DNA of 24,000 nt from Moorella naiadis (nom. illeg.) (lineage in GTDB: Bacteria; Bacillota; DSM-521; Neomoorellales; Neomoorellaceae): NCBI RefSeq assembly GCF_051020825.1, contig NZ_JAXGFQ010000009.1, forward strand, positions 42,387-66,386, given 5' to 3'. Below are positions 8,455-8,626 of this stretch, piece by piece (the stretch's first letter is position 1; every line of letters begins with the position of its first letter). The notes beneath the pieces are model-generated. The model did no database searches. It was not told the DNA's origin and saw only the letters and a program-made list of their open reading frames with translations. Position numbers and translations under genes: made by a program.

Positions 8455-8545
8455 AACCGCAAAGGGCAAACCCGACCGAAAGGCGGGGGCGCAAAGCCAC
8501 GGGCCTAAAGCCTTGACAGGCTATGGCAGCCGGGTTGCCGGGTAA
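8455..8545 (+). promoter_or_regulatory. c-di-GMP-I (GEMM-I) riboswitch aptamer
   Basis: GCAAAGGGCAAACC-CGACC-GAAA-GGCGG-GGGCGCAAAGCC-ACGGG-CCUAAAG...CUAUGG-CAGCCGGGUUGCCGG is nearly colinear with the Vibrio Vc2 aptamer as I remember it (GCACAGGGCAAACC..GAAA..GGGACGCAAAGCC..CCUAAAC...GCGGGGUUACCG). It includes the GAAA tetraloop and a CCUAAAG/CUAUGG tetraloop-receptor. Confidence 0.9.
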
Positions 8546-8572
8546 GCCATAGTGAAATTTTTTGGCGATAAC

Positions 8573-8612
8573 GGGCAACCCGGGCTGAGGCGGGTTGTCC
8601 TAAAATTTTTAT
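8573..8612 (+). terminator. Riboswitch expression-platform hairpin (terminator-like)
   Basis: 8573-8582 (gggcaacccg) pairs with 8591-8600 (cgggttgtcc): 10 bp with one G.U and an 8-nt loop. It is followed by taaaattttta, so the T run is not adjacent to the stem. The 5' arm can instead pair perfectly (10 bp) with the aptamer 3' strand at 8530-8539 (ccgggttgcc). Confidence 0.5.
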
Positions 8613-8626
8613 AGGGGGTATGCTGG

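Follow-up and report, generated by a model that had tools for sequence, protein, structure and literature searches.

A predicted c-di-GMP-repressed class I riboswitch preceding the gene of a secreted stalk-domain protein in Moorella naiadis

The class I aptamer for cyclic di-GMP (c-di-GMP), the architecture of OFF riboswitches and the connection of c-di-GMP with motility gene control belong to textbook knowledge. In Cd1 (Cdi-1-3), which precedes the flgB operon of Clostridioides difficile, the terminator is compatible with the aptamer and both are in competition with an antiterminator; the linker carries a hairpin named HP1 (PMC9262584). Cd1 is a proven OFF switch, c-di-GMP raising the amount of terminated product both in vitro and in vivo, and the flgB operon contains sigD (PMC6366702). 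In the same species, the class I leader of zmpI (CD630_28300) is a negative regulator of one secreted protein with a function at the cell surface (PMC6366702). The structural prototype of the class is Vc2, the leader of Vibrio cholerae VC1722, in which G20, A47 and C92 contact the ligand (PMC5888326). Here we describe the leader found at 8455-8626 of a 24,000-nucleotide (nt) stretch of the Moorella naiadis genome (contig NZ_JAXGFQ010000009.1, positions 42,387 to 66,386; hereafter the window), which lies ahead of the gene of a secreted stalk-domain protein. The closest known system is Cd1, and the leader adds a further class I c-di-GMP riboswitch, for which OFF logic of the Cd1 type is predicted; its main contribution is to provide a well-delimited case in thermophilic acetogens. 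A literature search found nothing linking this riboswitch with copper amine oxidase or with Moorella.

The search of the window with cmscan against Rfam 15 gave a sole match above threshold, RF01051 (c-di-GMP-I), at 8455-8542 of the forward strand, with 84.3 bits against a gathering score of 35 and an E-value of 1.4e-15. The match is not truncated, as it covers model positions 1-87 of 87, and in the cmscan alignment all consensus helices pair, with 0 non-canonical pairs flagged. The strong class I match proposed in the initial annotation was therefore borne out by the covariance model. The features of the type 1 GEMM architecture, namely two helices with a GNRA tetraloop docked in a tetraloop receptor, are present: a GAAA tetraloop (8478-8481) caps the first helix, and the second carries a near-canonical receptor formed by CCUAAA (8504-8509) with UAUGG (8522-8526). 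The leader shares with Vc2 the GNRA tetraloop and its receptor, GGC, CGCAAAG and the 3' CC (contacts in PMC5888326), and differs from it in the expression platform, the regulated gene and the thermophilic Firmicute host. The segments GGC, CGCAAAG and UUGCC are invariant in all eight leaders of an alignment of the window with its seven orthologs (alignment A1). By Vc2 numbering and the Rfam consensus alignment, we take G8465, A8493 and C8538 to be the presumed counterparts of Vc2 G20, A47 and C92. The element is placed in the 5' leader, on the same strand as the gene, and its 3' end is located 84 nt before the ATG at 8627. We regard it as nearly certain that this is a genuine class I c-di-GMP aptamer, and from its sequence it would be expected to bind c-di-GMP.

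Downstream of the aptamer, an expression platform was recognised in which the aptamer 3' strand (strand A), a switching strand (T) and a third strand (H) give two alternative helices (Table 1). As had been claimed in the initial annotation, the segment ccgggttgcc (8530-8539) has an exact reverse complement, ggcaacccgg, at 8574-8583, and folding even lengthened this long-range helix to 13 base pairs (bp) with one bulge, joining 8527-8539 to 8574-8587. The segment 8525-8590 folded with -32.9 kcal/mol (z-score -4.5), and 0 of 200 shuffled sequences folded as well. The same annotation had placed the 8574-8583 segment in the 5' arm of a hairpin at 8573-8600, and this also held: 8573-8582 and 8591-8600 form a 10-bp stem with one G-U pair and an 8-nt loop, worth -19.6 kcal/mol (z-score -3.07; 1 of 200 shuffles as good) and -11.4 kcal/mol at 60 °C. 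Strand H, in pairing with T, mimics strand A.

The free minimum-energy fold of 8455-8612 was the antiterminator state, with -69.4 kcal/mol against -56.9 kcal/mol for the aptamer-plus-hairpin state at 37 °C, and with -42.6 against -32.0 kcal/mol at 60 °C. According to these models, the gap between both states is of a size that the ligand and tertiary contacts could cover. In partition-function calculations the pair probability of the hairpin went from 0.00 in the free RNA to 0.58-0.99 when the aptamer helices were enforced, and that of the antiterminator from 0.97-1.0 to <=0.02; as modelled, the switch would be almost digital. The antiterminator uses up the 3' strand of the aptamer and with it C8538, the presumed pairing partner of the ligand, so that the RNA can either bind the ligand or form the antiterminator, but not both. 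The small hairpin of the linker is weakly conserved, the orthologs showing a small hairpin there in a different register. Cd1 has in common with this leader the aptamer class, the OFF layout of the A, T and H strands, the A:T antiterminator and the small linker hairpin (PMC9262584, PMC6366702). Differences are that the U run is offset here by UAAAA, and that Cd1 has been validated experimentally whereas the present leader is known from sequence and modelling. The OFF logic predicted beforehand was supported by the comparison of free and aptamer-enforced folds, by the conservation in the orthologs and by the Cd1-like strand layout, and repression by c-di-GMP is in our opinion very probable. An ON-type reading of the leader (8455-8626) was rejected, because hairpin and aptamer do not overlap and a closed aptamer cannot block the hairpin.

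An additional pairing was observed in the folds. The aptamer 5' segment GGGCAAACCCG (8463-8474) almost repeats the 5' arm of the terminator, GGGCAACCCG (8573-8582). In the minimum-energy structure without ligand, 8463-8474 of the aptamer is paired with the 3' arm of the terminator, full pairing being restricted to the window's own lineage. Such pairing, if formed as modelled, would provide a second lock on the read-through state.

Seven further genomes from this GTDB genus (Moorella/Neomoorella) carry the gene together with its leader, among them Moorella mulderi DSM 14980 (G003), Neomoorella sulfitireducens SLA38 (G004) and Neomoorella carbonis ACPs (G006). The RF01051 scores of the seven orthologous leaders ranged from 78.7 to 82.1 bits. 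In alignment A1, 91% of the cells of the hairpin and 93% of those of the antiterminator were paired, against 23-63% when the partner strand was slid by 1-3 columns. The only substitutions found in the switching strand of the orthologs were A8577 to G and C8580 to U, each of which still pairs with both partners. Strand H corresponds to ten consecutive invariant columns (151-160 of A1) that stand beside a lineage-variable loop (GGCTGAGG, GGTTTTTG, GGTTAAGG). A pattern scan of genome contigs recovered the same Moorella/Neomoorella leaders and chance matches only, that of metagenome contigs gave 5 chance matches, none with an aptamer, and a DNA-level search across the 23 genomes of the family yielded nothing new apart from two leader relics.

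The translation of the regulated gene begins with a signal-type N-terminus (MKYKK...AYA), followed by an acidic, lysine-rich linker, and ends in a T/S/P-rich tail with a conserved C-terminus; the LPXTG motif is absent from this tail. This agrees with the signal-peptide protein with a T/S/P-rich tail that had been annotated initially. The two copper-amine-oxidase-N repeats of the same annotation stood in part: Pfam recognises one Cu_amine_oxidN1 domain (PF07833) and not two, at residues 144-249 (123.2 bits vs a cut-off of 24.2, E-value 5.5e-36, profile positions 2-107 of 108), but this domain is internally duplicated, its halves being 33% identical over 43 amino acids (E-value 3e-9). The stalk domain matches the N-terminal domain of the Escherichia coli amine oxidase structures 1OAC/1D6U. 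The orthologs keep the whole architecture, with the domain conserved at about 90% and the linker not conserved. A role of this 320-amino-acid protein in the cell envelope is probable. Like the zmpI leader, the present one is of class I and precedes the gene of a single secreted protein; unlike ZmpI, which is a metalloprotease, the stalk-domain protein has no recognisable catalytic domain.

Upstream of the aptamer, a pattern scan located a candidate promoter of the sigma-D/FliA (sigma-28) type. The motif ends 11 nt upstream of the aptamer, with a predicted start site at about 8450-8453, and it occupies the same position in all eight leaders, where the sequence upstream of the -35 element diverges. 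The sigma-D motif of Bacillus subtilis is TAAA-N15-GCCGATAT (PMC5200910). TCAA-N15-GCCGATGA agrees with this consensus at 3/4 and 6/8 positions, with a spacer of exactly 15 nt, and the -10 element of the G003, G005 and G012 orthologs is GTGACGAT(A/T)A. All flagellin genes found in the genus (11/11) have exactly one TAAA-N15-(G/T)GACGATA(T/A), located 150-182 nt upstream; that of the own genome (G000:C2:87551-88186, minus; L098) has TAAA-N15-GTGACGATAA 150 nt upstream, with a -10 element identical to that of the G005 ortholog. In addition, a gene encoding an SLT lytic transglycosylase (G000:C26:5489-6523, minus; L097), whose best NCBIfam match is a flagellar-assembly lytic transglycosylase under the model cut-off, has a sigma-D-like TCAA-N14-GTGACGATTA 72 nt upstream. 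The genome also has a FliA/WhiG sigma gene (TIGR02479, 245 bits vs a cut-off of 189.6). This gene lies at the far end of a contiguous same-strand array of ~21 kb (G000:C1:235101-256971, minus) that starts with a c-di-GMP-I riboswitch with a canonical terminator, followed by flgB. The array, with the riboswitch first and the sigma gene last, is thus laid out like the C. difficile flgB operon with sigD.

From these sequence comparisons, the promoter at 8417-8443 probably depends on sigma-D, and the promoter-riboswitch-gene unit probably belongs to the late flagellar (sigma-D) regulon. Membership in this regulon would make repression by c-di-GMP physiologically sensible, and a feed-forward loop would be formed with the flgB leader. 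The tie to the sigma-D motility regulon is also shared with Cd1. However, Cd1 controls an early flagellar operon that encodes SigD, whereas the leader described here is placed behind a sigma-D-like promoter and precedes the gene of one secreted, non-flagellar protein. Another promoter candidate, the sigma-70-like TTGCCA-17-GATAAT at 8363-8391, was not adopted as the promoter of the leader because it falls inside the upstream CheY gene or at its end, at a distance of 64 nt from the aptamer; this region is not conserved in the distant orthologs, and a CheY gene is upstream in none of the ortholog loci.

The identity of the aptamer, the two exclusive helices with their conservation, and the promoter motif with its resemblance to those of the flagellin genes in the genus were computed here, and the mechanism that we propose is the following. 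Transcription from the sigma-D/FliA-type promoter would start at about 8450, and the aptamer (8455-8542) would be the first structure to form on the nascent RNA. With c-di-GMP bound, the aptamer would retain its 3' strand (8527-8539), including the ligand-pairing C, leaving 8573-8582 to pair with 8591-8600, and this hairpin and its A/U-only tail UAAAAUUUUU would end transcription ahead of the Shine-Dalgarno sequence. In the ligand-free RNA, 8574-8587 would invade the aptamer 3' strand to give the 13-bp antiterminator, so that the hairpin would be blocked and the polymerase would read into the gene. The secreted stalk-domain envelope protein would then be made while c-di-GMP is low and the cells are motile, and its expression would stop with rising c-di-GMP. 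We assign to this explanation, intrinsic termination included, a probability of roughly two in three (0.66). The traits by which the leader is distinguished are the offset U run, the sigma-D-type promoter and a stalk-domain protein as cargo. One small gene would be under the double control of a flagellar sigma factor, as judged from the promoter motif, and of a riboswitch. A poorly understood secreted Cu_amine_oxidN1 stalk-domain protein would thereby be tied to the low-c-di-GMP, sigma-D state, which hints at a surface role in motile cells.

Table 1. Features of the riboswitch unit and its surroundings; positions are those of the window.
Feature	Position	Strand	Evidence
Candidate sigma-D/FliA (sigma-28)-type promoter: -35 TCAA (8417-8420), N15, -10 GCCGATGA (8436-8443)	8417..8443	+	Pattern scan
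c-di-GMP-I (GEMM-I) aptamer	8455..8542	+	RF01051, 84.3 bits, full length
Strand A: aptamer 3' strand with presumed ligand-pairing C8538; antiterminator 5' half	8527..8539	+	Pairs with 8574-8587
Small linker hairpin GCCA/UGGC, then U6 run	8546..8566	+	Folding prediction
Strand T (switching): pairs with strand A (antiterminator) or with strand H (8573-8582, terminator 5' arm)	8573..8587	+	Folding, orthologs
Strand H: 3' arm of terminator hairpin, CGGGUUGUCC; mimics strand A	8591..8600	+	Folding, invariant columns
Tail UAAAAUUUUUAU, sub-canonical, T/U run offset 5 nt from stem	8601..8612	+	Sequence read, tail score
Shine-Dalgarno GGGGG (8614-8618) and start codon ATG (8627-8629)	8614..8629	+	Sequence read
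Regulated gene, 320 amino acids: signal peptide, acidic/K-rich variable linker, Cu_amine_oxidN1 stalk domain, T/S/P-rich tail	8627..9589	+	Pfam, translation
Canonical intrinsic terminator, 11-bp stem then TTTTT	9598..9632	+	Tail score 4.80, d-score +18.7
CHASE3 histidine kinase, stand-alone receiver, receiver-HD-GYP (HD_5) protein	9892-13260		

Several observations weigh against this explanation, and most of them concern the tail of the terminator, which is its weak step. The T run (U5) of 8601-8612 (TAAAATTTTTAT) begins 5 nt past the stem. With the d'Aubenton-Carafa 1990/TransTermHP formula, this tail scored 2.63 with a discriminant of -6.4, whereas canonical terminators elsewhere in the genome reached 3.7-5.6 and +16 to +44. 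The comparison set comprised the 3' terminator of the gene itself and those of four among the remaining five c-di-GMP-I leaders of the genome; the fifth such leader (T2SSF) contributed a proper tail score only (5.40), as its stem was entered incompletely. The doubt about intrinsic termination that had been voiced initially, on account of a U tract set apart from the stem, was hence well founded. The tails of the G004, G005 and G006 orthologs scored even below the 2.63 of the window, and the combination of a hairpin with AAAATTTT was not enriched genome-wide (2.45% vs 2.15% at random positions), in a comparison of low power in which the canonical TTTTTT gave only 4.9%. Furthermore, no compensatory double changes were found in either helix among the eight orthologs, which show only one-sided, wobble-compatible changes, and hence there is no covariation proof. 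Our reading is that little room for covariation is to be expected, since the three strands are mutually constrained: the sequence of A is fixed by the aptamer, that of T has to be complementary to it, and that of H has to imitate A. The last of these points comes from another genus of the family, where an 88-bit c-di-GMP-I aptamer (L016; G014:C44, locus 2396-2480, minus) precedes a more distant Cu_amine_oxidN1 homologue, either a paralogue or an orthologue, that is 36-42% identical to the stalk-domain gene product. The L016 leader is without a terminator and possibly follows a different logic: as judged from its sequence, the P1 strands CUCCC/GGAGGGG could compete with the Shine-Dalgarno region CCCCAAGGAGG, and control could be translational, perhaps of the opposite sign.

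On the other side, a T run is found 3' of the hairpin in all eight orthologous leaders. In G003 and G012 the stem is lengthened by A-U pairs and T6-T7 follows after 0-1 nt, with a tail score of about 3.9. Termination is favoured because the T run is kept in all lineages and has a conventional geometry in two of them, and termination at the offset U run is the probable output step. The RNA-DNA hybrid expected at release is UAAAAUUUU, A/U throughout. Moorella grows at 55-60 °C, and such an all-A/U hybrid may suffice for release at these temperatures. These orthologous platforms, with adjacent or offset U runs, represent a natural series for learning how much proximal U tract riboswitch terminators need.

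The sub-canonical tail also leaves space for a functional aptamer whose output is something other than classical intrinsic termination or masking of the Shine-Dalgarno sequence, with the sign still being OFF; it may involve a hairpin that requires NusA/NusG, a pause with Rho entry, or altered access of an RNase to the AU-rich 8601-8612. The sequence TAAAATTTT, which is common to G004-G006 and strongly conserved in 6/8 orthologs although linker and loop diverge, would fit such an output. However, there is no positive evidence for a factor, and the adjacent U run of two orthologs argues for simple termination as the ancestral or general mechanism, so that we hold this alternative unlikely. A U run needing no contact with the stem would equally be explained by a translational ON switch, in which the hairpin 8573-8600 is an anti-sequestor: in the ligand-free RNA, UCCUA of strand H (8598-8602) would pair with UAGGG of the Shine-Dalgarno region (8612-8616) and block initiation, and the ligand would lock strand H in the hairpin and free the latter. 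Both the window and G004-G006 allow this 5-bp helix, with extra G-U pairs as far as 8590/8623, and the isolated segments give -4.9 to -8.1 kcal/mol at 37 °C. Nevertheless, the pairing is at chance level (z-score -0.09; 92 of 200 shuffles as good) and at 60 °C contributes no more than -0.5 to -3.0 kcal/mol. In the ligand-free ensemble strand H pairs with the freed aptamer 5' strand, which leaves this helix a probability of 0.01. It is, moreover, absent from G003 and G012, where GGAGG occurs together with an adjacent U run, and it implies a sign opposite to that of these orthologs. At 37 °C the Shine-Dalgarno sequence had a mean unpaired probability of 0.53 in the free RNA vs 0.38 under enforcement of the aptamer, the values at 60 °C being 0.71 vs 0.59; accessibility is thus alike in both states, and the models do not predict a state-dependent masking. 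Translational control via this pairing was rejected, as the helix is no better than in shuffled sequences and accessibility is about equal in both states, and a translational ON switch seems very unlikely to us.

As regards the ligand, sequence alone cannot separate GEMM-I from GEMM-Ib with certainty, and the aptamer might read another cyclic dinucleotide, such as 3',3'-cyclic GMP-AMP (cGAMP) in the manner of GEMM-Ib; alternatively, it might be a decaying relic without a regulatory role, since leader relics do occur in the genus (G002, G010 and the deleted copy at G000:C9:70380-70430). The position of Vc2 G20 is an A in the cGAMP-sensing variants of GEMM-Ib, and at the site mapped to G20 the present aptamer retains a G within the conserved GGC. 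Against both possibilities stand the high-scoring RF01051 match over the full length and the abundance of GGDEF and HD-GYP genes in the window. A relic is also at odds with an aptamer that remains >=90% conserved while protein identity drops to about 60%. Another ligand or a relic is, accordingly, very unlikely.

Within the termination mechanism favoured here, a bolder version can be formulated. The conserved hairpin-UAAAAUUUU might be a working non-canonical attenuator of thermophilic Moorella, with A's replacing the stem-proximal U tract, which might operate only at high temperature or with NusA/NusG, and which together with the sigma-D promoter and the flgB-fliA riboswitch would form a coherent feed-forward loop. 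We consider this version doubtful as a whole. If it were true, c-di-GMP would silence a motile-phase envelope protein twice, indirectly via FliA and directly via the leader.

The limits of the unit were also studied. Besides the canonical terminator that follows the gene, the next genes have their own strong promoter-like site, TTGACG-17-TATAAT, at 9702-9730. The flanking genes vary among the orthologs, and only G009, the closest relative, has the same kinase/receiver/HD-GYP neighbourhood downstream. The terminator of its own, the separate downstream promoter-like site and the differing flanks indicate that promoter, riboswitch, gene and terminator constitute a self-contained, monocistronic unit.

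The genome has six RF01051 matches, and the five others precede two HD-GYP genes, a T2SSF/PilC-like gene, a gene for a methyl-accepting chemotaxis protein and flgB. Those five leaders have the same aptamer family and a hairpin with a T run, but, unlike the leader of the window, their U runs abut the stem and their tail scores are 3.7-5.6. In the leader of the T2SSF/PilC-like gene (G000:C2:37948-38030, minus; L003) the terminator stem is built from the aptamer 3' strand, as GCCGCCGGG...CCCGGGGGC followed by U7. With this construction the ligand should prevent termination, and from its sequence this leader appears to be of the ON type.

Finally, leaders without the gene were observed in two genomes of the genus. 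The leader L045 (G002:C65, ~70165-70294, minus) is intact up to the switching strand, and L047 (G010:C1, ~3425976-3426043, minus) is truncated. The same downstream sequence is found behind the relic leaders of G002 and G010, and these sequences suggest an independent or shared deletion of the stalk-domain gene. A second, internally deleted copy of the leader, which RF01051 did not detect, is located in the genome of the window itself at G000:C9:70380-70430, ~19.5 kb downstream of the riboswitch and just outside the window. In this copy, CAATTAATCTGCC, which matches the region upstream of the -35 element in G004 and G006, runs straight into the final third of the aptamer, TAACAGGCCATGGCAGCCGGGTTGCCGGGCAAGCC, and a canonical terminator follows; by its sequence, it looks like a relic.

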